A stretch of 64,000 nucleotides of DNA from Thermoanaerobaculia bacterium (GCA_963809425.1 CAWEJK010000009.1:150526-214525), one strand, 5' to 3'; shown: positions 7,180 through 47,894, numbered from the stretch's first letter. The notes: generated by a model from the sequence alone, not told the origin. A program made the numbers and translations.

Positions 7180-8469
7180 TCAGGGGTTCGTCCCGACCTT
7201 CCCGCCGTCCCAGGCCGAGACCAGGGACGTCTTCTCGTTCTCGTAGACGCGCGCCAGCGTCTCGAGTCGCGCTTCGGCCTCCGCGGCCTCCGCCTCCCGA
7301 GTCTCTTCCACGAACGTCGCGACCTTGCCCAGGTACAGGGGCACGAGGGATCGGATGAGCGTATCTCTCGGAAGGCTCCGCCGCGCGTACCCGAGCGCCG
7401 CACCGTAGACGATCCGAACGAAAAGCTCGTCCGAGAGCGCCGTGGGGACGAGAGCCGCGGCCTCCTGGATGCCGCGCAGTACGTCCTCCGGCAGGAAGCT
7501 CTTCCACACGGGCGGGAGGTCGGCCGCGCCCTGCCGGAACAGGGAAACCAGCCGGTCGATCTTGACGGGCACCGGCTCCAGTCCGACCGCGTAGGGCAGG
7601 CCGAAGACCCGGGCGTCCTGCGAGCCTTTGATCCCCTTCCATACGTCCGCGTAGCGTCCCATCAGGTCGAAGAGCGTCGAGACGACCTGAACGAGCATGT
7701 CCTGAAGGTCGGCCCCCGGGTCCTTCGGGTCGTGGAGCTTGGCGCCGAGGAAGGACTGGCACACCTTGTGGCTCTCGGCGAGAGCCGTCGTCGTCATGAA
7801 GATGTCGATGCCGTACCGCGCGACGGGGCCTTCCCATTCTTCGTATTCCAGGAACCGCCGCGCGAGCCTGCCCGAAAAGCCGAAGTCTCCGCCGATCGGT
7901 TGCCTGACGCGGTGCCCGTAGAGCGCGCGCGTGAGCGGGTACACGATCGTGTTCGTGATCGTCCCGTCGTACCGGTGCCGCGCGTACAGAGGCGCGACGA
8001 ACTCGTAGCCGTGGTCGAGAACGGGGCTCAGCAGCAGCTCGACCCACTCCGGCGTGATGCTGCGCAGGTCGCTGTCGACCACGCAGCACGCGGAGGCATC
8101 CAGCTCGGCCGCGATGCGGAAGATCGTGCGCAGAGCGCTCCCTTTGCCCGGCAGCCCGGAGTACGGCGTGACGATGCGCGAGAGGGGCGAGGTCGGGACC
8201 GCGTCCACGAGAATCTCGGTGAGGTCGCCGAGCTCGGTCTTCACGACGACCTCGCGCGTCCCGTCGGTCGAGCCGCCGTCGCTGTTCACGAGGACCGTCT
8301 TCGCCTCCGGAAAATGGCGGGCGATGCCCGCGGCGACGGCGCGCACGACGTGTCCGATCGTCCGGGCATTGTTGAACGAAGGGATCCCGACGAGGAGATC
8401 CACCCGGCCGAGTGTCTTGAGCCGCGTCATCACGCCGGCGTCGAGCTCGGGCGTCACGATCAGAGTCAT
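7180..8469 (-). CDS. GT2 glycosyltransferase, glucosylglycerate/mannosylglycerate synthase-like (Ggs)
   Basis: Motifs VGIPSFNNARTI, NSDGGSTDGT, GKGSA, VDSDLRSI, RHRYDGTITN and RQPIGGDF. Start trimmed to ATG 8469. Confidence 0.8.
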   Translation of the reverse strand: MTLIVTPELDAGVMTRLKTLGRVDLLVGIPSFNNARTIGHVVRAVAAGIARHFPEAKTVLVNSDGGSTDGTREVVVKTELGDLTEILVDAVPTSPLSRIVTPYSGLPGKGSALRTIFRIAAELDASACCVVDSDLRSITPEWVELLLSPVLDHGYEFVAPLYARHRYDGTITNTIVYPLTRALYGHRVRQPIGGDFGFSGRLARRFLEYEEWEGPVARYGIDIFMTTTALAESHKVCQSFLGAKLHDPKDPGADLQDMLVQVVSTLFDLMGRYADVWKGIKGSQDARVFGLPYAVGLEPVPVKIDRLVSLFRQGAADLPPVWKSFLPEDVLRGIQEAAALVPTALSDELFVRIVYGAALGYARRSLPRDTLIRSLVPLYLGKVATFVEETREAEAAEAEARLETLARVYENEKTSLVSAWDGGKVGTNP

Positions 8470-8470
8470 C

Positions 8471-9244
8471 TCACCCGCCGGTCCTTTCGTCGTCCACGAA
8501 AGCCCGCACGGCGACGCTCCACCCCGCCCCCGCGGGGGCCGTCCCGACGGCGGCATTCGGTAGGGCGGCCCGCAGCGTTTTGTCGACGCCCGCCTTCTTT
8601 GGAACGAGGACGGGGTGATCGACGATCCGAAGAAACGCGACATCGTTCGGGGCGTCGCCGAGTCCGATCGTCCGGGACGGACGGAGAATCTCGACGAGCC
8701 GCCGCACGGCGTCTGCCTTGTCATGGAGGCCCGAGAGGTGCCAGAAGCGCCCGCCGCGAACCAGTCGAACCCGCGGCGGAAGCGTCGCGGACGAGAGCGC
8801 GGCGGCGTCGTCGCCTGCGGCGATGAACGGAAGGTCGAACTCCCGCGCGCGCGCCGCGGCAGCCTGATCGAGCGGGAGGCCGGTGAGGCGGACCCACTCG
8901 GCGTCGGGGATTTCTTCGATCGAGAAGAGGGGCCGCCCCGTCTGGCGCTTCAGAGCGTCCAGGGTCGCTCGGAGCTCGCGAAGCGGGACGGCCGTCGGCA
9001 GGAGCTCGGTCCCCTTTCTCAGAATTCCCGCGCCGTTCTCGAAAGCCCCGACGCCGCCGGAATCAAGGATCTCGAGCCAGCGCGCGAGCTCGACGCGGGT
9101 CTTACTCGTCAGCGGGACGACCGGAATGCCGCGCATGCTCAAGGCGGCGATCGTCTCACGCGCCTCGCGCGACAGAGTACCGTCCTCCTCGAGGAGGGTG
9201 CCGTCCAGGTCTGTGAAGACGATCGTTGACGACAACTCCTGCAA
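8471..9244 (-). CDS. HAD-IIB mannosyl/glucosyl-3-phosphoglycerate phosphatase
   Basis: Motifs FTDLDGTLL, TSKT, ENGAG, REFDLPF, GGRFWH and GLGDAPND. Confidence 0.85.
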   Translation of the reverse strand: MQELSSTIVFTDLDGTLLEEDGTLSREARETIAALSMRGIPVVPLTSKTRVELARWLEILDSGGVGAFENGAGILRKGTELLPTAVPLRELRATLDALKRQTGRPLFSIEEIPDAEWVRLTGLPLDQAAAARAREFDLPFIAAGDDAAALSSATLPPRVRLVRGGRFWHLSGLHDKADAVRRLVEILRPSRTIGLGDAPNDVAFLRIVDHPVLVPKKAGVDKTLRAALPNAAVGTAPAGAGWSVAVRAFVDDERTGG

Positions 9245-9269
9245 TCTCCTGGGGAGGCTGCGGGAGCGG

Positions 9270-10508
9270 TCAGCGCGCCTTCGCGGCCGCCTTGCCGGGC
9301 TTGGGCGGGGTGGGAGCGGACGCGGGCTTCGCCTGAGCCTTCAAGGCCGCGCGTTTCTGCTTCCAATCCTCCCACACGACGACGAGCGGAGCCGCGATGA
9401 AGATCGAGGAGTACGTCCCGACGATGATGCCGACGATCATCACGAAGGCGAATCCGCGCAGGACTTCGCCTCCGAGGAAGAACAGGACGACGACCACCAC
9501 GAAGGTGAGCACCGAGGTCAGGACCGTCCGCGAGAGCGTCTGGTTGATCGAGGTGTTGACGAGCTCGGGCAGCGGGGTGCGCTTGGACTTCTCGCGGTTC
9601 TCGCGGATCCGGTCGAAGACGACGACCGTGTCGTTCACGGAATAGCCCACGAGCGTGAGGAACGCGGCCACGACCGTGAGCGAGATCTCGAGGTTCAGGA
9701 TCGAGCAGAGGCCGAGCGTCGTCCACGTGTCGTGAATGAGCGCGACGACGGCGGCCGTTCCGAACGACGCCGAGCGGAAGCGGAACGCGATGTAAAGGAG
9801 CATCGCGGCCCACGAGAAGAGGATCGCCCACATGCCCTTTTCGCGGAGGTCCTTTCCGACCTGCGGGCCGACGTTCTCGGCCGAAAGCAGCGTGAACGGG
9901 CCGGCGACGGTCTTCGCTTTGAGCCACTCGGCGGTCGCGGGTGAGATGCCCGCGGTCTTCGCGGCGTCGTCGAGCGAGTGGAACAGCCCCTGCTCCGACC
10001 GCGCCGCGATGAGCGCCTGGACCTCGCGCCCGTACTCGACCTTGGGGTCGGCGTTCGGCCGCGTCGCGAGCTTCTCGGGGTCGTCGGCGATCAGCTTCGC
10101 GAGAAGCGTGTCCGCGCCGTTCAGGTTCAGGTCGAACGCGGTGGCGTTCGCGCCCTCGGGGAAAAGCGACTTCGTGAGCGCCGCCGTCACTTCCTTCGAG
10201 AGGTCGCGGCCTTCCTTCTTTTCGAGCGGGACGCGCAGGAGAACCTGGTTCTTCTCGGGCTTGTCGAAGCGCTGGACCGAGACGACGTTCACGTTCGCGG
10301 CTTCGACGATCTTGCGGACCTGGTCCTCGTCGGGAGTCTTCGAGAACCCGTAGACGATCTGGGCGCCGCCCGTGAAGTCGATGCCGAGCTTCGGGCCGCC
10401 CTTGGCGATCAGCGAGATCGTGCCGATGACGATCGAAAGGATCGACAGCGAAATCGCGATCCACTTGATCTTGAGAAAATCGATGTTCGTCTTGTGAAAG
10501 AGGCGCAC
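9270..10508 (-). CDS. secF: Protein translocase subunit SecF with an enlarged periplasmic domain
   Basis: Motifs LGIDFTGG, VGPQVGKDL, GYSVNDTVVVFDRIRE and GTYSSIFIA. Confidence 0.95.
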   Translation of the reverse strand: MRLFHKTNIDFLKIKWIAISLSILSIVIGTISLIAKGGPKLGIDFTGGAQIVYGFSKTPDEDQVRKIVEAANVNVVSVQRFDKPEKNQVLLRVPLEKKEGRDLSKEVTAALTKSLFPEGANATAFDLNLNGADTLLAKLIADDPEKLATRPNADPKVEYGREVQALIAARSEQGLFHSLDDAAKTAGISPATAEWLKAKTVAGPFTLLSAENVGPQVGKDLREKGMWAILFSWAAMLLYIAFRFRSASFGTAAVVALIHDTWTTLGLCSILNLEISLTVVAAFLTLVGYSVNDTVVVFDRIRENREKSKRTPLPELVNTSINQTLSRTVLTSVLTFVVVVVLFFLGGEVLRGFAFVMIVGIIVGTYSSIFIAAPLVVVWEDWKQKRAALKAQAKPASAPTPPKPGKAAAKAR

Positions 10509-10527
10509 GTTGGCTCCGCTCTTTGGC

Positions 10528-12159
10528 TCAGATGGAAAGGGTCTCGACGCGCTCCTTCGGACCGTAGATCAGGTCGAAGAGCAGGTGCGACACGAAGACC
10601 GCGGTGAAGACCGAGGCCAGGAGGCCGATGACGAGAGTGACGGCGAAGCCCTTGACGGGCCCGGTGCCGAACTGGAAGAGGAAGAGGGCGGCCATGATCG
10701 TCGTCACGTGCGTGTCGACGATCGTGCCCCACGCGCGCTTGAAGCCGAGGTCGATGGCGGACTTCGGCGCCTTGCCGTTGTCCATCTCCTCGCGGATGCG
10801 CTCGAAGATGAGGACGTTCGAATCGACGGCCATGCCGATCGTCAGGATGAAGCCCGCGATGCCGGGCAGCGTGAGCGTCGCGTTGATGTAGGCCATCGCG
10901 CCGAGCAGGATGAGAGCGTTCAGGACGAGCGCCACGACCGCGTTCACGCCCGAGAGCCGGTAGTAAAAGACGACCGCGATGAAGACACAGATCATCCCGA
11001 CGATCGAGGCGAGGACGCCTTTCTTGATGGAGTCGAGGCCGAGCGACGGCCCGACGGTGCGTTCCTCGAGAATGATCATCTCGGCCGGAAGCGCGCCCGA
11101 ACGGAGGACGAGCGAGAGGGCGTCCGCCTTCTCCGCGGTGAAGTTCCCCTCGATGATGCCGCTCTCCTTGATCTGGCTGTTGATGTTCGGCGCGGACTGG
11201 ACGCGTTTGTCGAGCACGATCGCGAGGCGCTTGTTGATGTTCTCACCGGTCACCTTCGCGAACTTCGTCGCACCGGTGGCGTTCAGGAAGAACATGACGG
11301 CGGGCTGGTTGAACTTGTCGCGGTCGACCCGGGCGTTCTTCATGTCGCGGCCCGTGACGGCGGCGGCGCGCTTGAGCACGTACCAGACCGGCGTGCGCGT
11401 GCGGGCGTCGGAGTCCTCGTTGAAGCCCTCGACGATCTCGAGGTCCTCGGGGACGGTCCCGCCGTAGGCGGCTCGCGCGCCGTCCATCGTCGGATAGGGT
11501 CCCCCGCGGTCGTCCACGAGCTTCAGCTCGAGGAGGCCCGTCGTCCCGATGATCTCCTTGACGCGGCTCGGATCGTCCACGCCGGGAATCTCGACGACGA
11601 TGCGGTCGGTGCCCTGCCTCTGGATGACGGGCTCGGCGACGCCGAGGGCGTCGACGCGATTGCGGATCGTCTCGACGGCCTGGCGCGTCGCCTGGTCCTC
11701 GATCGTGATCCGCTCGGCGTCCTTGAAGGAGATTTTCCATTCGCGCCCGCGCTGGTCGATGGCCCAGGCGTTCGGCGGAAGAACCGCCGTGACGAGGTCC
11801 TTGAGCTTCGCGGCGTCCGTCTTCTCGTCGATCCGGAGCGTGAAGCCCGTGCCGTCCGCGGGGCCGGCGGGCATCACGGACACGCCGCGCTTGCCTCCTT
11901 CGTCCTTGAGCCGTTCGAGCGTGTCCTGGGCCTCGACGCGCAGGGCGTCGGCCGTCTTGACCTGCATGACGAGATGGATGCCGCCGCGGAGGTCCAGCCC
12001 CAGCTTGATGCCGTTCCGGAGGACGTCCGAGATCGCCGGGTTGGGCGGGGCCGTCGGCAACTTCTTCAGCGCCTCGTGGCCGCGCCACCAGTACGCACCG
12101 ACCGAACCGAGAAGGACGGCCAACGTCACGCCGACGCGCCATCCGGTGGGCTTGTTCAC
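10528..12159 (-). CDS. secD: Protein translocase subunit SecD
   Basis: Motifs LGLDLRGG, RNRVDALGVAEP, LRSGALPA, VGPSLG and GMAVDSNVLIFERIREE. Confidence 0.96.
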   Translation of the reverse strand: MNKPTGWRVGVTLAVLLGSVGAYWWRGHEALKKLPTAPPNPAISDVLRNGIKLGLDLRGGIHLVMQVKTADALRVEAQDTLERLKDEGGKRGVSVMPAGPADGTGFTLRIDEKTDAAKLKDLVTAVLPPNAWAIDQRGREWKISFKDAERITIEDQATRQAVETIRNRVDALGVAEPVIQRQGTDRIVVEIPGVDDPSRVKEIIGTTGLLELKLVDDRGGPYPTMDGARAAYGGTVPEDLEIVEGFNEDSDARTRTPVWYVLKRAAAVTGRDMKNARVDRDKFNQPAVMFFLNATGATKFAKVTGENINKRLAIVLDKRVQSAPNINSQIKESGIIEGNFTAEKADALSLVLRSGALPAEMIILEERTVGPSLGLDSIKKGVLASIVGMICVFIAVVFYYRLSGVNAVVALVLNALILLGAMAYINATLTLPGIAGFILTIGMAVDSNVLIFERIREEMDNGKAPKSAIDLGFKRAWGTIVDTHVTTIMAALFLFQFGTGPVKGFAVTLVIGLLASVFTAVFVSHLLFDLIYGPKERVETLSI

Positions 12160-12273
12160 GAACGCAACCTCCGGACGCGGGCCCGTCCGGAAGGCGGCAG
12201 GGAGCCACCCGTTCGTCAGGGAGACCGCGGGATGTGCCCGGGCAGCTCCCGGGCGAACCGGCGGAGTCTAGCA
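12158..12273 (-). promoter_or_regulatory. secD leader: extended -10 element plus structured 5' UTR covering the RBS and start codon
   Basis: TGcTAGACT at 12273-12265; three complementary stems between 12158 and 12216 include GGAG of the RBS and part of the GTG start. Confidence 0.5.
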
Positions 12274-12287
12274 GAACCCCGGCCCCC

Positions 12288-15197
12288 TCAGGGCCCGGCA
12301 AACACGGGAGGGGCCGACCGCGAGGAGTAGGGGGCCAGCGAGACGCGGGTCAGCTTCTGCACGACGTCGGGGGGGAGCGCCGCCAGAAGCCGCTCGTGCC
12401 GCCAGGCGTGACACGACACGACGAGCACCGGGCGCTCGCCGAGGACGTCCGTGGCGAGGAAGCGCATCACGGCCAGGAAGCGCTCGTCGTCCGCGCCGAC
12501 GAGCGGGTCGTCGAGGAGAAGCGGCACGCCCGCCACCCCCGTGCCGAGGTACCGCAGGGCCGCGAGGCGCGCCGTCAGGTGCAGCTGCTCGCGCGCGCCG
12601 GTCGAAAGGCCCGACCGGATCTCGCCCTTCGTCGCGATGCGTCCCCCGCGCATGAGCGCCGAGAGGGAAAGATCGTCGCCGAACTCGAGAGACTCATAAG
12701 GTGTCTGCCAGGTCGCAAGAATCTCCTTCGAGGCCGCCTGAAGGCCGCGGCGGAAGTCGCCGTACACGGAAGAGGCCGCGGACGCCAGCGTGGTGCGGGC
12801 GAGGTCGAGCGCATCCCGAAACAGGATCGCGCGGGCCTGCGATGTCTCGGCGGCCGCGAGGTCCTCCTCGACGGCGCAGGCCATCTCACCCCCCTCGCGC
12901 GCGGCGTCCGCGAGCTCGCGCTCGGCGGCGACGCGCGCGTTCTCGGCGGCCGTCATGGCCGCGCGCGCGACGTCGGCCGCCCGGCGCGCCGCTTCGGGGG
13001 TTTCGGGAAGCGCGAGCGCCTGCGGATCGACTCCGAGGAGCGACGCGCGCCGCGCGCTTTCGTCGTCGAGGCTGGTCAGCCGCGACGCGAGGTCCGCCTC
13101 TTCTCCCTCGTCCCCGCCCTCGCGCCGCGCCGGAAGCTCGTGGTCGAGCAGCCTTCGGAAGCGCGTGGCCTTGCGCCGGCCGACCTCCACGGCAAGCAGC
13201 GCCTCGGCCAGCGGGAGAGAGCCGGGAACGCCGAGCCGGCCGAGCGCATCCCGCATCCTCTCCTCTATTTCGCGGAGCTCCCTTTCCTCGCGGGACAGGC
13301 GCTCCGCCTCGCGGGAGAGGACCTCCTCGCGCATGCGGGCGTCCTGCCGGACCCGCGCGAGGTCCCCCAGGAATGCCAGCGCCTGCTCGGCCTCCGCGGG
13401 AGCCGGAAGGCCTTCGGGCAGCGCGAGCATCGCCCGGTGCGGCCGAAGCGTTTCGTCGAGCGACCGCAGGCGTTCCTTCGCATCGTCGCGGCGCGCCGTC
13501 AGGGCGACGACGAGGCGCCGGGGCTCCTCGGCGCCCCGCGCGCGCCGGTGGGCCTTGAGCATCGACGACGCGTCGCGATAACCCGCCCCTCGCGCGAGCC
13601 GGTCGAGCCGGGCACGCAGATCCGAGAGCCGTTTGCGCAGCTCCACGGCCTTGCGCCGGCTGACCGCTTCGTCTTCCCGCGCGCGCGCCTCGTCTCCAAG
13701 CCGGTAGCGTGCCGCGCGCGCCCACGCGATGCCTCCGAAGAGACCGAGAGACAGGGCGAAGACGGCCAGCGAAGCCGTCATGTAGATCGGCGCGCCCGCC
13801 GGGCGGAAGGCCAGCCAGCCGACGAACGGGACGAAAACGGCCGCGGCGCCGGCGAAAGCGCGGGCGAGCCTCACCCGCTGCCTGCGCTCTCCGACGGCGA
13901 TGGCGGCCGTCGCTCCCGCGTCCGCCACGCGCCGGTCCAGCTTGACGCCCTCGAGCTCGAGCGCCGCGCGTGTCTCCTCGGCGCCCGCGAGAAAGCTCCG
14001 ATCCTCGGGCGCGAGAGCCTCGAGTCGCACGAAGTCCTCGGCGAGACCGTCCCTCCGGAGGGCGTTCCATCGTTCCTCGAGGAGGCGCTCGACCTCGGCG
14101 AGATCCCGCGCCGTCGAGAGCTCGGCCCGGAGCGTCTCCTCCAGGCCCTCGCGTTCGGCCTCCCCGAGCCGGACCGCGGGCCCGAAGCGACGCGCGCTCT
14201 CCTCGACCTCTCGCGCCGCGATCCGCGCGCTTTCGGCCGCCGCGGCCCGCGCCGTGTCGAGTGCCTGCGGCCTGTTCCCGCGCTCCTCGCGGAGACGGTC
14301 CACGGCGGCGAGCGCCGCGTCCGAGAAGAGCTCGGCTTCCGGGGCGAGCTCCCGGGCCTCGTCCTCGGCCGCGCGCCGCTTCCGGAGCGCGGAACCCAGC
14401 GCCTCCAGCCGCTGCGCGAGCGCCCACCGGTGCGCGAGGACCTCGGCGAGGGCGGCGATCTCGGCGGCGCGCTGCGCCTCGTCGCGCGCCTTCACGCATC
14501 CCGAGAGGCGCGCCGAAGCCTGCGCGGCGGCGGCGCGCCGCGCCGCGAGTTCCGCCCGCCGCCGCCTCAGCGCCTCGGCGCGCTTGCCGAGTCTCGCAAT
14601 CTCCGTGTCCACGGAGATCTTGGAGCCCGAGGCGGGTTCCGGCATCTCGGCCCGTACCGCGTCGAGGCTCTTCAGCGCGCGCACGACGGACGCCTCGCCT
14701 CCCCCGGAGTCCGCGATGCGCGCAAGCTCGACGGTGAGACCCGCGTCGAGCGAATCGCGGTCGAGGACGTTCTGCGAGACGTAGGCCGTCGCGCGGAAGA
14801 GCGTTTCCGTGAGGCCCCCCGTCACGGTTTCGCCGAACGCGTCGCGTCCTCCCGCGCGCAGGAACTCCTGCGTGCAGTCGAGGCCGCGATCCCGGTCCAC
14901 GACGCGGACGGTTCCCGCCTCGAGATCGCGGTCCACGGACCACCGGGTCTGGCCCACCGTGACGTCGAGGCCCACGCGCAGAGGCGCGCCGCTCCGCGGC
15001 CTCCGCACTTCCCGCACGCGCCCCGCCAGGCCGCGCGTCGTCGGGAGCCCGTAGAGCGCGGCGACGATGGCCTCGCAGAGCGTCGTCTTGCCCGTCTCGT
15101 TCGGATCGACCGCGAGGAGGACACGTCCCTCCGGCCAGGCGAGATCGAAATCGCGCAGGGCGCCGAATCCGTCGATGCGGATGCGCTCGATCTTCAT
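12288..15197 (-). CDS. SMC/Rad50-like ATPase (YhaN/SbcC-like) with a central two-helix hydrophobic segment
   Basis: Starts MKIERIRIDGFGAL at 15197; Walker A-like DPNETGKTT, Q-loop YVSQ, long coiled coil, signature LSTGAREQ, Walker B LLLDDP and H-loop SCH. Confidence 0.85.
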   Translation of the reverse strand: MKIERIRIDGFGALRDFDLAWPEGRVLLAVDPNETGKTTLCEAIVAALYGLPTTRGLAGRVREVRRPRSGAPLRVGLDVTVGQTRWSVDRDLEAGTVRVVDRDRGLDCTQEFLRAGGRDAFGETVTGGLTETLFRATAYVSQNVLDRDSLDAGLTVELARIADSGGGEASVVRALKSLDAVRAEMPEPASGSKISVDTEIARLGKRAEALRRRRAELAARRAAAAQASARLSGCVKARDEAQRAAEIAALAEVLAHRWALAQRLEALGSALRKRRAAEDEARELAPEAELFSDAALAAVDRLREERGNRPQALDTARAAAAESARIAAREVEESARRFGPAVRLGEAEREGLEETLRAELSTARDLAEVERLLEERWNALRRDGLAEDFVRLEALAPEDRSFLAGAEETRAALELEGVKLDRRVADAGATAAIAVGERRQRVRLARAFAGAAAVFVPFVGWLAFRPAGAPIYMTASLAVFALSLGLFGGIAWARAARYRLGDEARAREDEAVSRRKAVELRKRLSDLRARLDRLARGAGYRDASSMLKAHRRARGAEEPRRLVVALTARRDDAKERLRSLDETLRPHRAMLALPEGLPAPAEAEQALAFLGDLARVRQDARMREEVLSREAERLSREERELREIEERMRDALGRLGVPGSLPLAEALLAVEVGRRKATRFRRLLDHELPARREGGDEGEEADLASRLTSLDDESARRASLLGVDPQALALPETPEAARRAADVARAAMTAAENARVAAERELADAAREGGEMACAVEEDLAAAETSQARAILFRDALDLARTTLASAASSVYGDFRRGLQAASKEILATWQTPYESLEFGDDLSLSALMRGGRIATKGEIRSGLSTGAREQLHLTARLAALRYLGTGVAGVPLLLDDPLVGADDERFLAVMRFLATDVLGERPVLVVSCHAWRHERLLAALPPDVVQKLTRVSLAPYSSRSAPPVFAGP

Positions 15198-16405
15198 CGG
15201 TCCTCGGCTTCCGGCGGCCGGATCGGCCTCCCGAGGAGCGCGTCGCGCCCGAGACGGAGCGCGAGATCGGCGACGCGGCGCTGCGCGTCGTCGGCCGCCG
15301 CCGCGCGCCAGGCGAGGAGGTCGGACGCGAAGCGGCCCTCCGCAGAGCGCGGTCCGGGTTCGGGCGCGGGCGGCTCTGTCTGATCGCGCACCGTGAGATG
15401 CTTCGCGCGCGTCGCGAGCGGCCTCAGGATGTCGGCCGGCCGCGCACCGAAGGCCTGCATCCCGGTCAGAGTCACGCGCACGAGGTCCGGCGCCTCGACT
15501 CCGGCGTCGCGCAGCGCGGCCTCGACCTTCTCGGCGAGCGGGCCCGCTTCGAGATCGCTCACGTCCACGGACAGGTCCCTGATGACGCGCGCGTCGGCCG
15601 GAATTTTGTCGACGACGATCGGCGACCCGTCGACGGGCAGCGTCACCCGGAGAAAGAACCTCGGACCCGCCTCGTCGAGGCCGCGGCCCGTGGGGCACCC
15701 CGCATAAGCCCCGCGCGGGCGGCCCTCGTCGTCGGCCACGACGTAAACGTGATGGTGGTGCCCGAGTGCCGCCCAGGAGAAGCCGGCGTCGGTGAGCTCG
15801 TTCTCGGAGAACGGCGCGGTGCGCTTCGTGCCCCTCGGGGAGTCCGCCCCCGCGTACGACTCGAGGGAGCCATGCAGGAGGAGGAGCGCGTGCGGTGTCG
15901 GCGGACGAGGCGGCGGGGGCGCGAGCGGGCGTTCGACGACGGCGGCGGAGGACAGGAACGCGCGTCCGACCACGGTGACGTCTTCGCGCCCCGGGAACGG
16001 GACGGCCGCCCACTCCGGGCCGCGAAATACGACGACGTTCCCGGGCCAGGGCCGCATCCCGAGCGCGGACAGCAGCGCCGGGTCGTAGTAGCCGCCGGGC
16101 CCCGCGAAGTCGTGGTTCCCGGGCGCCACGAAAACGGGCCGCGGCGCGAATGAAGCGAAGGCTTCGAGGAGGCGATGGATCGTCGCGGGCGGAACGTTCT
16201 CGGCGTCCCACAGATCCCCGGGGACGAGGAGCGCTTCGGCGCCGCACGACGCCGCGGCCGACACCGCGCGCTCCGCGGCGGCGTCCACTTCGTCGCGGCG
16301 CGCCGCGCGCGTCTCGGGCGTGAAATTCAGCCCGCCGCCGGTCAGGGCGGAGCCCAGATGCCAGTCCGAGGACTGCAGGAACGTCAGGGGGCGCCCGGAG
16401 GTCAC
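15194..16405 (-). CDS. Mre11/SbcD-like metallophosphoesterase nuclease (YhaO-like)
   Basis: Motifs SDWHLG, PGDLWD, PGNHD, LHGS and ALGHHH; ATGA overlap with the ATPase gene. Confidence 0.88.
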   Translation of the reverse strand: MTSGRPLTFLQSSDWHLGSALTGGGLNFTPETRAARRDEVDAAAERAVSAAASCGAEALLVPGDLWDAENVPPATIHRLLEAFASFAPRPVFVAPGNHDFAGPGGYYDPALLSALGMRPWPGNVVVFRGPEWAAVPFPGREDVTVVGRAFLSSAAVVERPLAPPPPRPPTPHALLLLHGSLESYAGADSPRGTKRTAPFSENELTDAGFSWAALGHHHHVYVVADDEGRPRGAYAGCPTGRGLDEAGPRFFLRVTLPVDGSPIVVDKIPADARVIRDLSVDVSDLEAGPLAEKVEAALRDAGVEAPDLVRVTLTGMQAFGARPADILRPLATRAKHLTVRDQTEPPAPEPGPRSAEGRFASDLLAWRAAAADDAQRRVADLALRLGRDALLGRPIRPPEAEDR

Positions 16406-16419
16406 TCCCTAGTTTCGCA

Positions 16420-16746
16420 TTACGTGGCCGATTCCTTCGAGTCGGCCTCGCCGGTCGTCCCGGCGATCGCGCTGCGGTTCACCTTGATCTTGACCGTGTC
16501 GGCGATCTTGAGCCAGACGATCTGGTCCTCGACCTGCGCGATCGTTCCGTGAATGCCGCCCGACGTGACGACCCGGTCGCCCTTCTTCAGGGCGGCGAGG
16601 AGCTGCTTCTGCTTCTTCTGCTGCTTGCGCATGGGAGCGAGAAGCACGAAGTAGAAGATCACGAACATGAGGATGTAGGGGACCATCTGCACGAGCGGCG
16701 AGCTCGCGGCCGAGGGCGCCGCCTGCAAGAGGTGGAACGGGTTCAT
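16420..16746 (-). CDS. yajC: Preprotein translocase subunit YajC
   Basis: IFYFVLLAPMRKQQK...LKKGDRVVTSGGIHG. Start ATG 16746 overlaps the tgt stop. Confidence 0.95.
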   Translation of the reverse strand: MNPFHLLQAAPSAASSPLVQMVPYILMFVIFYFVLLAPMRKQQKKQKQLLAALKKGDRVVTSGGIHGTIAQVEDQIVWLKIADTVKIKVNRSAIAGTTGEADSKESAT

Positions 16747-17888
16747 GGAACGTCCTTTCCGACGGAACGCGACCACTTCGGGAGCGTTTCCGCCGCCCAA
16801 TTCGCGTACCGTTTCGCGTCGAGAGCCTCACGGATTCCCCGCATCAAGTCAAGGATCGCGGTCAGGTTGTGGACGGTCATGAGCGTCGCGGCGGTCGGCT
16901 CGCCCGCGACGTGGAGATGTCGCAGGTACGCCCGCGAGTGCCGCCGGCACGTGGGGCACCGGCAGTCCGGATCGGGCGGCGCGTCGTCCTCGCGATAGCG
17001 GGCGTGCTTGATCGCGATCGTGCCGAAGGACGTGTAGAGAAGGCCGTGGCGGGCCGCGCGCGTCGGAAGCACGCAATCGAACATGTCGAAGCCCTGCGCG
17101 ACCGCGTGCAGGAGGTCGTCCGGGCGGCCGACGCCCATGAGATACCGCGGCCTCCCTTCGGGAAGGAGCGGCCCCGTGTGCGCGACCATCGCGCGCATCT
17201 CCTCTTTCGGCTCGCCGACCGAGAGGCCCCCGCAGGCGATTCCGTCGAACGGCAATGCCGCGATCGCCGCCGCGCTCCGTTCCCTGAGGCGCGGAAACAT
17301 GCCGCCCTGCACGATGCCGAAGAGCGCGCCGCGATCTCCCCCGAGCGCGTCGCGGCGGTCGGCGGCCCGCCGCGCCCAGCGATGCGTGAGCTCCATCGAC
17401 GCGAGCGCCGCGCCTTCCGTCGCCGGATACGGCGTGCACTCGTCGAGGGCCATCGCGACGTCGACTCCGAAGTCGTCGAGCTGGAGGTCCACGGCGCGCT
17501 CGGGGCTCAGGGCGTGCGCCGAGCCATCCACGTGGCTCCGGAAGAGCACGCCCTCCTCGGAGAGCGTCCGGCTTCCGGCGAGGGACATGACCTGATAGCC
17601 GCCGGAGTCGGTCAGGATCGGCCGGTCCCACCCGACGAAGCGATGCAACCCGCCGAGGCGCCGGACGACGTCGCCGCCGGGGCGGAGCATGAGATGGTAG
17701 GTATTCGCGAGCACGATTTCGGCGCCCGCAGCCTCGACGTCGCTCCACCGCGCGGCCTTCACGGTTCCCGCCGTGCCGACCGGCATGAACGCGGGTGTCT
17801 CGACGAGCCCGTGGTCGAGCGTCAGCCGTCCGCGCCGCGGGCCCCGCGCGCCGCCGCCGGAGGAGGAAAGGACCTCGAAGCGCAGCAT
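16743..17888 (-). CDS. tgt: tRNA-guanine(34) transglycosylase
   Basis: Motifs TPAFMPVGT, NTYHL, TDSGGYQ, GIVQGG, YLMGVG, FDCVLPTR and the Zn-binding CRCPTC. Confidence 0.97.
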   Translation of the reverse strand: MLRFEVLSSSGGGARGPRRGRLTLDHGLVETPAFMPVGTAGTVKAARWSDVEAAGAEIVLANTYHLMLRPGGDVVRRLGGLHRFVGWDRPILTDSGGYQVMSLAGSRTLSEEGVLFRSHVDGSAHALSPERAVDLQLDDFGVDVAMALDECTPYPATEGAALASMELTHRWARRAADRRDALGGDRGALFGIVQGGMFPRLRERSAAAIAALPFDGIACGGLSVGEPKEEMRAMVAHTGPLLPEGRPRYLMGVGRPDDLLHAVAQGFDMFDCVLPTRAARHGLLYTSFGTIAIKHARYREDDAPPDPDCRCPTCRRHSRAYLRHLHVAGEPTAATLMTVHNLTAILDLMRGIREALDAKRYANWAAETLPKWSRSVGKDVP

Positions 17889-17894
17889 TCCCGT

Positions 17895-19088
17895 CTAGAG
17901 GCCGACGCGGGCCGTGAGGGTGAGGCCGAGCGCGCTCTTGTCGGTCCTGTACGAGCCTCCGAGATCCACCTTCGCGGGACCGATGGCCACGCCGGCTCCC
18001 ACCGCGTAGACCGGGGTCCTGTCCGGCGACTCGAGGTTCACCGAAGCGCCGGCGCGGACGACGACGAGAAGCACCGTCCACTCGACTCCGCCGCCCAGCT
18101 CCCGCACGCGAAGGCCGTCGACGAGCGTCTCGTTCACCGTGAGGTCGTAGTCCGCGGCAAGGAGGAGGCCGACGACCGGGATCTTCACGGACGCGCCGAT
18201 GCGCGCCTGTCGCCCCCAGGTCACGGAGCGGCCGCGATCCGCCGCCGGGCCGTCGTCCGCGAACGGGAACGCGGGCTTGTTGATTCCTCGAAAGACCCCG
18301 CCGACGTGGACCGGACCGAGCGACACGAGGCCGCCGAGGTCGAAGGACCAGTCCGTGTGGGAGCGCGCCGTTCCGGTCAGCGCGCGCTGGGCGAGATTCC
18401 ACGGATCGCCGATGTCGGTCGTGAACGCGGACTCTTCCTTCGTATACGTCGAGCCGAACAGCGCGTGGACGGATGCGCCGACCGTGACCCGGCCGAGGAA
18501 GAACGACATCGATCTCGAGAGCGCAAGGTCCTTGAGCTCGAGGCCGCGAAAGGCGACCCCGGAATTGTTGAAGGCGATCGAGGTGGCGGGGTTGGCGCCG
18601 AGCGCCGTATGGACGAGATCCGCGCGCGCCGAGAGGCCGCTGAAGCCCCAGTCCGAGAACGAGAGCTCCCAGCCTCCGTGCGCGATCGCGAGCCCCGCGA
18701 CGCCGTTTCCCAGGAGCCCGTTTCCGGGATCGGCGAGCGTGCGGAGGGCCCGGACGACGTCCGCATAGCTCTGGGGCTGCGAACCCGACGCGAGCGCGAG
18801 CGGGTTGTTTCCCGGGATGAGGCGGAGCGGGGACAGGAAATCGCCGCTCTCCCGCGTGAGGAGCCCGGCGGAGACCGTGAACGCGAACTTCCGATCCGGG
18901 ACCGCCGCGGGGTTGTCGATCCCGGCTGCGACGTCCGGGCCGAGCCCCACCGACGCGCCCCCGAGCGCGGCGGAGCGCGCGCCGAAAGGAGAGAACGGCA
19001 TCTGGGCAGGGGCGGCGCCGGCCCACAGGAGAGCGGCCGCAACCGACGCGAGGATCTGTTTCCGGTGCGGAGCGGGAGGCGGCGCCAT
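17895..19088 (-). CDS. Probable outer-membrane beta-barrel (TraF_2/FadL/PorV-like)
   Basis: Signal peptide, N-terminal GARSAALGGASVG...NPAA motif and alternating amphipathic beta-strands running to the C-terminus. Confidence 0.65.
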   Translation of the reverse strand: MAPPPAPHRKQILASVAAALLWAGAAPAQMPFSPFGARSAALGGASVGLGPDVAAGIDNPAAVPDRKFAFTVSAGLLTRESGDFLSPLRLIPGNNPLALASGSQPQSYADVVRALRTLADPGNGLLGNGVAGLAIAHGGWELSFSDWGFSGLSARADLVHTALGANPATSIAFNNSGVAFRGLELKDLALSRSMSFFLGRVTVGASVHALFGSTYTKEESAFTTDIGDPWNLAQRALTGTARSHTDWSFDLGGLVSLGPVHVGGVFRGINKPAFPFADDGPAADRGRSVTWGRQARIGASVKIPVVGLLLAADYDLTVNETLVDGLRVRELGGGVEWTVLLVVVRAGASVNLESPDRTPVYAVGAGVAIGPAKVDLGGSYRTDKSALGLTLTARVGL

Positions 19089-19174
19089 ACGGGCTCCCAG
19101 TGTACGTTTCCCCGGCGCGTTGACCCTGAAAAACTAAGGATGCTATGTTCCGGGCCCGTTTTGCAGGAGGCGCA

Positions 19175-19507
19175 TTGCCGGATCTCGGAAACAAACACAA
19201 CTGCTTCAAGTGCGGGACGAAGTTCTACGACCTGAGGAAGACGCCCGTCCTCTGCCCGAAGTGCGGCGCCGACCAGAAGGACGCGCCCCCGCAAGCGACG
19301 TCTCCCGTCGTGCTCCACGCCGCGCGCCGGGCGAAGCGTGACGAGTTCGCGGATCCAGACGTCTTCGACCGCAACCGCGAGGACGAAGACGTCGCGACCG
19401 GCGAGCCGGAGGACCCGGCGGCCAAACGCGTGGATGACGACGAAGAGCTGCCCCTCGGCGAGGCGAAGACGCTGGAAGGCCGGGAGGATCCCGAAGACGA
19501 CTACTGA
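19175..19507 (+). CDS. FYDLN_acid family zinc-ribbon protein
   Basis: LGNKHNCFKCGTKFYDL...CPKCG followed by an acidic tail; AGGAGG RBS before TTG 19175. Confidence 0.85.
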   Translation: MPDLGNKHNCFKCGTKFYDLRKTPVLCPKCGADQKDAPPQATSPVVLHAARRAKRDEFADPDVFDRNREDEDVATGEPEDPAAKRVDDDEELPLGEAKTLEGREDPEDDY

Positions 19508-20084
19508 TCGCACCCGCCGTCCGCGGCCCGTCTTCGTCGCGATAGGGCTTGGCGCGAACCTGGGAGACCGGGAAGAGATTCTTAGAAGGGTAAGAGGGGC
19601 GTTGGCGGAGCATCTGGACGGGCTTCGTTCTTCGTCGCTCTACGAAACGTCCCCAGTCGGCGGCCCTTCTCAGCCCGACTACCTCAATGCGGTCGTCACG
19701 GGTTGGACGAAACTCTCGGCCCGTGCCCTCTTCGCCTTTCTAAGAAAATCCGAATCCGCCGCCGGCAGAAGGAGAGCGCGTGGAGCGCGGAACCTCCCAC
19801 GCCCACTGGACCTCGATCTCCTCCTCTACGGCAACGAGCAAATCCGTTCGCGCGCGCTCACCGTGCCGCACCCGCGGATGACGTCGCGCCTGTTCGTCCT
19901 CGTCCCCCTGGCGGACGTCGCCGCGCGACGCGTCGTGCCCGGAACCGGAAAGACGGTCGCGCGGCTCGTGGCCGAAGCCCGGCTCGACTCGACGGAGCGC
20001 GTCAGACGCGCGAGGCCCGTCAGACGGTCGAAGCGCGGGGAAGGACCCGCGATTCCACCAGGAGCTGGTCGTTCGGCAGCGTGA
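19434..20084 (+). CDS. folK: 2-amino-4-hydroxy-6-hydroxymethyldihydropteridine diphosphokinase
   Basis: Motifs [29 protein letters not shown] and [13 protein letters not shown]. Start uncertain; the nearest in-frame ATG overlaps the upstream gene. Confidence 0.9.
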
Positions 20085-24365: not shown

Positions 24366-24387
24366 CGGTCCCGTAGACTCCCGGACG

Positions 24388-47810: not shown

Positions 47811-47894
47811 AGCCGGCGAGTCTAGCACCGGCAGCGCCGGGCGTGCTCCCCTGCGACGGTTCGCAGCGCGGACGAAGAGCTTGCTGAGCTCCCG

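Follow-up and report, generated by a model that had tools for sequence, protein, structure and literature searches.

Why should the genes of a nuclease and of an ATPase resembling structural maintenance of chromosomes (SMC) proteins lie between yajC and secD? The question is raised by a 64,000-nt stretch from a Thermoanaerobaculia bacterium (GCA_963809425.1 CAWEJK010000009.1:150526-214525), here called the window, in which coordinates are counted from the first letter. Its minus strand carries the whole of a tightly packed block made up of a barrel-like gene, tgt, yajC, the nuclease, the ATPase, secD and secF, and all features described below lie on this strand unless stated otherwise. An earlier note on this DNA had placed a coupled Mre11-like nuclease and SMC-like ATPase at 12288..16405 and suggested that the two are co-expressed with SecDF and act at the membrane on incoming DNA. 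The coordinates proved exact, the two genes overlap by ATGA, and the folds match. As to function, we came to a different view, which we hold with moderate confidence: the pair adds a new and divergent member to the SbcF/SbcE (YhaO/YhaN) family. Its products most likely process DNA ends in housekeeping repair, as a membrane-tethered complex of the Mre11/Rad50 type. The location of the pair between yajC and secD is probably incidental.

The nuclease gene (15194..16405) starts with GTG and encodes 403 residues. The protein matches Pfam Metallophos (E 3.3e-9) and the sequence of T. maritima Mre11/SbcD (E 9.7e-9), and an AlphaFold2 model built on 16 relatives reached a mean predicted local distance difference test (pLDDT) score of 88. 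The top Foldseek matches of this model were exclusively Mre11/SbcD chains, the best with an E value of 1e-16 and template modelling (TM) scores of 0.57/0.68, which places the protein in the Mre11/SbcD fold, SbcF/YhaO type. In an alignment of relatives the metal-binding motifs are complete (D14-W-H16, G63-D64, G96-N-H-D99, H178 and G215-H-H-H218); a capping domain is also present, and hydropathy analysis gave no hydrophobic segment. At the C terminus the model contains two helices, 355-368 and 373-390, and by our reading of the model this helix-loop-helix would be placed where Mre11 binds the coiled coil of Rad50. To follow the genes across public genomes we used 51 related loci, obtained by scanning one genome per species, of which 45 hold the nuclease and 44 reach beyond the ATPase. 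The motifs DxH, GD, GNH[DE] and GHxH were intact in 45/45 nuclease-holding loci.

The ATPase gene (12288..15197) is coupled to the nuclease gene, its ATG overlapping the nuclease stop as ATGA at 15194-15197. It encodes a 969-residue Rad50/SMC-like ATP-binding cassette (ABC) protein of the SbcE/YhaN type. Pfam AAA_27 scored over its cut-off at the N terminus (E 2.6e-8), and since the same model was also positive in 12 of 14 control genomes the match is not family-specific; matches to Rad50-head profiles were weak (E 9e-4). The Walker A motif (residues 30-38, VDPNETGKT; 15084..15110) contains N33, E34, G36 and K37, which are invariant or nearly so in alignments of relatives. The motifs of the C-terminal head (12408..12605) comprise the signature LSTGAREQ (S865-G867), the Walker B sequence LLLDDP (D896, D897) and the H-loop (H930), and the alignments show conservation of K37, of Q142 in the Q-loop, of S865-T-G867, of D896-D897 and of H930. 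In the AlphaFold2 model (pLDDT 83) the N- and C-terminal heads are linked by long antiparallel helices, and Foldseek matched the model best to Smc5/6, Rad50, MukB, JetC and LmuB.

The apex of these helices (residues 444-495; 13713..13868) occupies the position of the Rad50 zinc hook. A CxxC hook is found nowhere in the ATPase, and a central CxxC was present in 0/31 aligned relatives. The model instead contains a helix spanning 397-463, a short loop (R465-P-A-G-A-P) and a second helix spanning 471-496. Residues 447-464 and 466-493 include no charged residue at all and are bordered on both outer sides by clusters of Arg, and hydropathy windows over the two helices reached 1.66 and 1.85. Of 18 relatives checked, 16 have a central pair of hydrophobic helices, distant YhaN-like proteins of only ~20-25% identity among them. 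Taken together, sequence and model predict that the apex forms a membrane hairpin of two helices, both arms of which would lie on the cytoplasmic side. The membrane site of action proposed in the earlier note is thus plausible, for a reason that the note did not cite.

The one experimental counterpart to this architecture comes from Bacillus subtilis. According to the report on SbcE (YhaN) and SbcF (YhaO), SbcE resembles SbcC, lacks CxxC and has a central domain that is hydrophobic and insoluble, the gene of an SbcD-like nuclease adjoins sbcE, and SbcE and SbcF are linked by two-hybrid analysis (Krishnamurthy et al., Nucleic Acids Res 2010, PMC2811018). The same source describes mild defects in double-strand break repair and in transformation, and polar foci in competent cells (PMC2811018). 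We compared a profile of the window clade with a YhaN-like profile, made from metagenome proteins of which one is labelled 'YhaN' by its source. The two profiles aligned by hhalign with a probability of 100% and an E value of 6e-82 over 949 columns, and the window ATPase shares ~20-25% identity with the YhaN-like set. Searched against 1.84 billion representative proteins, the ATPase gave 232 matches at E <=1e-30, most of them collinear and 930-1000 aa long. The canonical cut-offs were missed by a wide margin, with 31.2 against 77.65 bits for TIGR00619 (SbcD) and 20.3 against 700 bits for Rad50, and a search of the window's own genome with TIGR00618 (SbcC) gave no match at the locus of the pair. 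On these grounds we assign the pair to a divergent SbcEF rather than to canonical SbcCD. It has the length and split head of an SMC-like ATPase, a hookless hydrophobic centre, homology to YhaN from end to end and an adjoining nuclease gene upstream, all of which characterise SbcEF.

We then considered which other systems of this kind the same bacteria possess. SbcD (TIGR00619) scored over its cut-off in 0/41 genomes of the order. Any match to TIGR00619 was obtained in 24 genomes of the genus, and in 22 of these the match was this nuclease alone; one genome (G008) had two extra weak matches elsewhere and another (G013) one. In the window's own genome, which is 88.5% complete, no SbcC was detected over the cut-off, and RecN and a ComEC homologue are present. 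By these searches the pair is the only Mre11/Rad50-type system found in these genomes. One of the two extra G008 matches adjoins a second YhaN-like ATPase, and on another contig G008 carries a second, different YhaO/YhaN-like pair (G008:C87:2007-5823) besides the pair between yajC and secD.

How old is the location of the pair, and does it carry functional meaning? The order barrel-tgt-yajC-nuclease-ATPase-secD-secF was recovered in 12/12 loci of other species of the genus, with ATPase identity down to 63%, and the barrel gene itself was detected in 10 of the 12. Among the 51 related loci, yajC lies directly upstream in all 45 that hold the nuclease, and secD follows within <=400 nt in 43 of the 44 that reach beyond the ATPase. 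An arrangement that recurs at this frequency is not due to chance, and in close relatives the pair does not sit at unrelated loci, an outcome that would have spoken against the earlier note. The sole exception (L054) keeps tgt-yajC-nuclease-ATPase, and a 437-aa open reading frame (ORF; L054:8905-10218), beginning 16 nt after the ATPase, replaces secD. In a survey of the class (151 genomes) the nuclease was present in 16/16 genomes of the window's own family (f1, five genera) and in 1/134 genomes of 16 other families, where it is 33% identical and lies ~600 kb from secD. In two sister-family genomes (G033 and G027) and in G163, yajC and secD are separated by 84-160 nt with nothing between them. 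The ATPases of the family form one clade in a quick IQ-TREE analysis, with a Shimodaira-Hasegawa-like approximate likelihood ratio test (SH-aLRT) support of 100, and the clade stands on a long stem (1.66 changes per site).

These observations are most simply explained by one ancient insertion, which would have taken place in the common ancestor of a single Thermoanaerobaculia family. Traces of a mobile element were not seen, as had been stated before: integrase and transposase ORFs are absent from the block, and the flanks of the pair, when searched for direct or inverted repeats, gave low-identity GC-rich matches only, none of them convincing. Fixed synteny would be expected after such an event even without a functional reason, because whatever enters a run of genes whose order is strongly conserved is not easily relocated. 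The yajC-secD address serves as a clean phylogenetic marker of the family and offers a natural case of genes added to a conserved operon.

The two ends of the insert differ in layout. The nuclease gene follows the yajC stop after 14 nt (16406..16419), and not 15 as had been counted, although the same-strand position directly after yajC was described correctly; a spacer of this length is too short for a promoter. At the other end, 128 nt (12160..12287) separate the ATPase from secD. We aligned this spacer from 18 loci of the family and 3 sister-family loci and found a conserved -10-like hexamer, TAGACT (12265-12270). A TG stands before it in the window's genus, and in other genera TTGACG occurs 18 nt upstream. 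In two f2 genomes the spacer between yajC and secD contains CTGACA followed, after ~18 nt, by TAGACT or TACACT. A GC hairpin (12236-12254) comes next, and then the Shine-Dalgarno sequence of secD, GGAGG (12168-12172). RNAalifold, applied to 15 loci, gave an invariant hairpin stem and flanking pairs with changes on both sides. An Rfam scan of 9000-20000 (E <=1), which includes the spacer, returned no match, and a consensus promoter and terminator scan of 8000-20000 left the minus-strand block empty save for one weak site within secD that resembles a terminator; only the alignment brought out the promoter-like element before secD.

From these data we infer that secDF has its own promoter, which would predate the pair; the insertion would then have occurred between this promoter and the yajC stop. 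The spacer at 12160-12287 could be the secDF promoter plus a leader element. Because the promoter-like element also occurs in sister families that lack the pair, the pair appears to be appended to the tgt-yajC unit and not embedded in the secDF transcript. The window contains 3 TAGACT hexamers in all, each of them just 5' of a gene start or in a spacer and co-oriented with the next gene. One of the other two (24374-24379, plus strand) lies 9 nt before an ATG, hinting at a leaderless or very short-leader transcript, and the second (47819-47824, minus strand) is preceded by TGC, as is the copy before secD.

RNA data bear on the upstream side of the pair. The pair is covered by contigs from four metatranscriptome libraries, derived from relatives ~90-95% identical to the window. 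The yajC-nuclease junction is bridged by X18 record 14 (16167-16542) and X20 record 31 (16205-16463), and the nuclease-ATPase junction by X17 record 5 (15087-15775) and X18 record 13 (15060-15371). These contigs fit co-transcription of yajC with the pair. Among the RNA contigs listed, none bridges the spacer between ATPase and secD, which in itself proves nothing, and contig depth differs between secD and the pair, although such depths cannot rank genes.

Could the address nevertheless be functional, the complex working with YajC and SecDF, for example by docking of the apex hairpin, and so coupling DNA-end processing to the translocon in space or in expression? Such a link would account for a nuclease that begins 14 nt after yajC and for the near-constant company of yajC (45/45) and secD (43/44); YajC and the ATPase are both predicted membrane proteins, and the RNA-library contigs span yajC and nuclease. 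The same synteny is, however, what an insert that is hard to move would produce in any case. The promoter-like element that secD has to itself, shared with pair-less sister families, speaks against the co-expression with SecDF that had been proposed for the pair, and so does the L054 lineage, which keeps the pair and yajC without secDF. Elsewhere in the phylum, 11/11 homologous pairs occur without yajC or secD within 1.5 kb. YajC itself has a single hydrophobic helix by hydropathy and carries no extra domain. We therefore consider a working link of this kind highly unlikely. Barely probable, in our judgement, is the specific version in which the SbcEF-like complex is a dedicated YajC-SecDF partner, its apex hairpin docks there and its placement 14 nt behind yajC was selected; if it were true, the handling of DNA ends would take place at translocon sites or where DNA enters. 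The evidence does not make the pair a new secretion-linked system.

Two further members of the block had been cited in support of a joint function, namely the barrel gene and a helix-hairpin-helix insert in SecF, and both turned out to exist without the pair. The insert lies in the periplasmic part of SecF (secF, 9270..10508; TIGR00966, 302.8 bits), comprises ~70 residues (about 125-195) and resembles a helix-hairpin-helix, matching HHH_3 with an E value of 0.015, below the cut-off, when searched alone. It is well aligned in the pair-less families f2, f3 and f14 and is thus conserved in no fewer than four families of this class, whether or not they have the pair. The barrel-like outer-membrane gene (TraF_2 / PorV-like; 17895..19088), which is first in the block and stops 6 nt before tgt, matches Pfam TraF_2 (E 1.1e-8) and, below the cut-off, the NCBIfam family PorV_fam (22 bits). 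A gene 35% identical to it stands 5' of tgt in G033, the f2 genome of a sister family without the pair. Since both occur in the absence of the pair, neither the insert nor the barrel gene is evidence of joint function.

The remaining genes of the block are regular members of their families, with YajC, TGT, SecD and SecF all scoring well over the family cut-offs. The gene tgt (16743..17888) encodes a queuine tRNA-ribosyltransferase (Pfam TGT, E 1.4e-141, full-length match). We rejected a DpdA-type DNA-modifying identity for it in view of this full-length match to the tRNA enzyme; tgt also stands beside yajC in sister families. Next comes yajC (16420..16746; Pfam YajC, E 1.9e-28; TIGR00739, 91.5 bits), whose ATG overlaps the tgt stop as ATGA. 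The product of secD (10528..12159) matches Pfam SecDF_P1_head, SecD_1st and SecD_SecF_C. Further 3' of secF, the minus strand contains ORFs for a haloacid dehalogenase (HAD)-family phosphatase (8471-9244) and a family-2 glycosyltransferase (7180-8724). As listed they overlap by ~250 nt, and the true start of the glycosyltransferase is therefore probably internal. Both ORFs also follow secF in 11/51 related loci.

If the address is incidental, the function of the pair must be sought in the proteins and in the company that their relatives keep, and here the idea that the complex acts on incoming DNA, either processing transforming DNA at the uptake site or degrading phage or plasmid DNA, has to be weighed. 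The predicted membrane anchoring of the ATPase would suit it. In B. subtilis, SbcE/SbcF are reported to localise to the poles of competent cells, and a mutant to transform slightly less (PMC2811018). The window's own genome has a ComEC homologue, which carries little weight given that ComEC was found in 10 of 14 control genomes. With respect to defence, the head of the ATPase bears a weak resemblance to GajA and LmuB, and the fold matches include JetC and LmuB. However, PADLOC gave no match for the nuclease and, for the ATPase, matches confined to residues 1-59 with a best E value of 1.1e-6, and the partner genes of Gabija, Lamassu and Wadjet are absent from the block. The profile comparisons that had been suggested earlier thus gave a YhaN-type match, scores short of the SbcCD cut-offs and weak N-terminal hits to defence models only.

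Homologous pairs elsewhere point in the same direction. A survey of the phylum (251 genomes) yielded a patchy distribution of full-length YhaN-like matches, with 13 genomes outside the window's family. In 11/11 other Acidobacteriota loci, a count that leaves out a locus from one unpublished genome, a YhaO-like nuclease stands directly upstream of the ATPase, and yajC and secD were not found within 1.5 kb. We annotated the wider context of six homologous loci, comprising 46 neighbouring proteins. Two further Acidobacteriota families have a canonical mutS with domains I-V as the next gene downstream on the same strand (L099:10963-13596, at 13 nt, and L100:4524-7235); by ORF layout alone, L101 resembles L099 and L100. 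In another Acidobacteriota family the gene of a beta-CASP/RMMBL metallo-nuclease lies just upstream of the pair in L102 (11125-12558) and nearby in L103 (3692-5116). We compare this neighbour with yhaM of B. subtilis, the gene of an exoribonuclease, which adjoins yhaN (PMC2811018). The neighbours in L104 and L105 are a YHS-domain gene and a carboxylase. Defence genes were not recognised among the 46 neighbours of the six loci, save for one PIN-domain ORF.

Inheritance of the pair is strictly vertical in the family, and the mode of selection resembles that of its housekeeping neighbours. We estimated the ratio of non-synonymous to synonymous substitution rates (dN/dS) from 11 loci at dS 0.27-0.79 and obtained 0.11-0.16 for the nuclease, 0.13-0.22 for the ATPase, 0.13-0.21 for tgt, 0.11-0.21 for secF and 0.06-0.13 for secD. 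Purifying selection of the ordinary kind acts on both nuclease and ATPase, and the values give no hint of an arms race. Nothing that we found favours a role in uptake or defence, and we consider action on incoming DNA unlikely. The anti-phage or plasmid function put forward in the earlier note loses further ground with the housekeeping contexts of the homologous pairs, and the clustering of the pair with YhaO/YhaN proteins, by hhalign and in the quick tree, is likewise an outcome that the note itself had regarded as adverse to its idea.

Several points weigh against our preferred reading of the pair as a membrane-tethered SbcEF-type repair complex placed at yajC-secD by accident. The Walker B motif of the ATPase ends in DD and not in DE. 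Membrane insertion of the apex is a prediction, the hydropathy values of 1.66 and 1.85 are modest, and a hydrophobic dimerisation tip is an alternative. The likeness to the B. subtilis SbcE and SbcF proteins themselves is to their published description, and the sequence comparison is with the YhaN-like metagenome set. To our knowledge, experiments on the family cover no Gram-negative member. As for the address, strict family-wide retention beside yajC could also reflect selection for co-expression. The RNA contigs derive from relatives, carry-over of DNA into the libraries is possible, and a contig that covers two genes is not equivalent to a single transcript. The promoter before secD is deduced from conservation, and the ACTCC within the conserved element could instead pair with the Shine-Dalgarno sequence of secD; on either reading, the spacer element is older than the pair.

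A further difficulty comes from G123, a genome of the same family (genus g12) with the pair at the same yajC/secD site (nuclease L076:8138-9250, minus strand; ATPase L076:5253-8120). Its nuclease has lost the metal motifs, with DWH changed to DWF, GD to GN, GNHD to GDAE and GHHH to GGNP and with the H178 segment deleted, while the reading frame is open and the C-terminal helices are retained. The ATPase, 41% identical to that of the window, retains all motifs. It follows that nuclease chemistry is dispensable in at least one lineage. This raises the possibility that the complex is mainly structural, a membrane-anchored SMC-like ATPase that tethers or organises DNA with the nuclease mostly as a scaffold, which would explain why DxH, GD, GNHD and GHxH could go and the C-terminal helices and ATPase motifs stay. 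Outside G123, however, the metal motifs are intact in all aligned relatives as well as in the 45/45 public-genome loci, and the dN/dS of the nuclease is as low as that of the ATPase. G123 may moreover represent a decaying lineage, as its subclade is the earliest branch and the most divergent of the family clade in the quick tree. We regard a mainly structural role for the family as very unlikely.

Returning to the reading as a repair complex, we propose the following working model. The hairpin of the ATPase would anchor the complex in the cytoplasmic membrane, and both the heads and the nuclease would face the cytoplasm. On ATP-driven engagement, the heads would clamp DNA ends or hairpins and pass them to the nuclease, as in SbcCD and Mre11-Rad50, and the complex would serve to repair breaks and hairpins close to the membrane as a housekeeping task. 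The old insertion would have placed the pair immediately behind yajC and ahead of the promoter-like element, as the tail of a barrel-tgt-yajC unit, and the pair may have been trapped between yajC and secD ever since, with no working link to SecDF required.

SbcEF is among the least understood of the bacterial SMC-like repair systems, and the papers we found treat it as a system of Firmicutes. Here, a divergent SbcEF clade is fixed in a whole family of Gram-negative Acidobacteria and has the same hookless apex. If this apex is truly embedded in the membrane, the family would constitute a membrane-tethered machine of the Rad50 type, which bears on how DNA ends are handled near the envelope; in the literature searched, we did not find SbcEF described in these terms.

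Comparison with known systems places the pair as follows. With Gabija (GajA), Lamassu (LmuB) and Wadjet (JetC) the window ATPase shares an ABC/SMC head, fold matches to JetC and LmuB and weak N-terminal PADLOC matches. In contrast to these systems, the matches span ~58 residues, the partner genes are missing from the block, the context is one of housekeeping genes and inheritance is vertical. With E. coli SbcCD and the archaeal and Thermotoga Mre11-Rad50 complexes the pair has in common the nuclease fold and metal motifs, the ABC head and the translational coupling of the two genes, whereas the ATPase lacks a zinc hook and has a predicted membrane hairpin at its apex, and the scores fall far below the cut-offs of these families. 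The closest likeness is to SbcEF of B. subtilis, in which an SbcD-related nuclease of ~400 aa is likewise encoded directly 5' of an SMC-like ATPase of ~960 aa with long coiled coils and a hydrophobic centre in place of the CxxC hook. The window pair differs from it in its host, a Gram-negative acidobacterium and not a member of the Firmicutes to which the literature found confines SbcEF, and in its surroundings, where a yhaM-like neighbour is missing and the genes are attached to tgt-yajC, ahead of secDF; it belongs to a separate clade on a long stem of its own.

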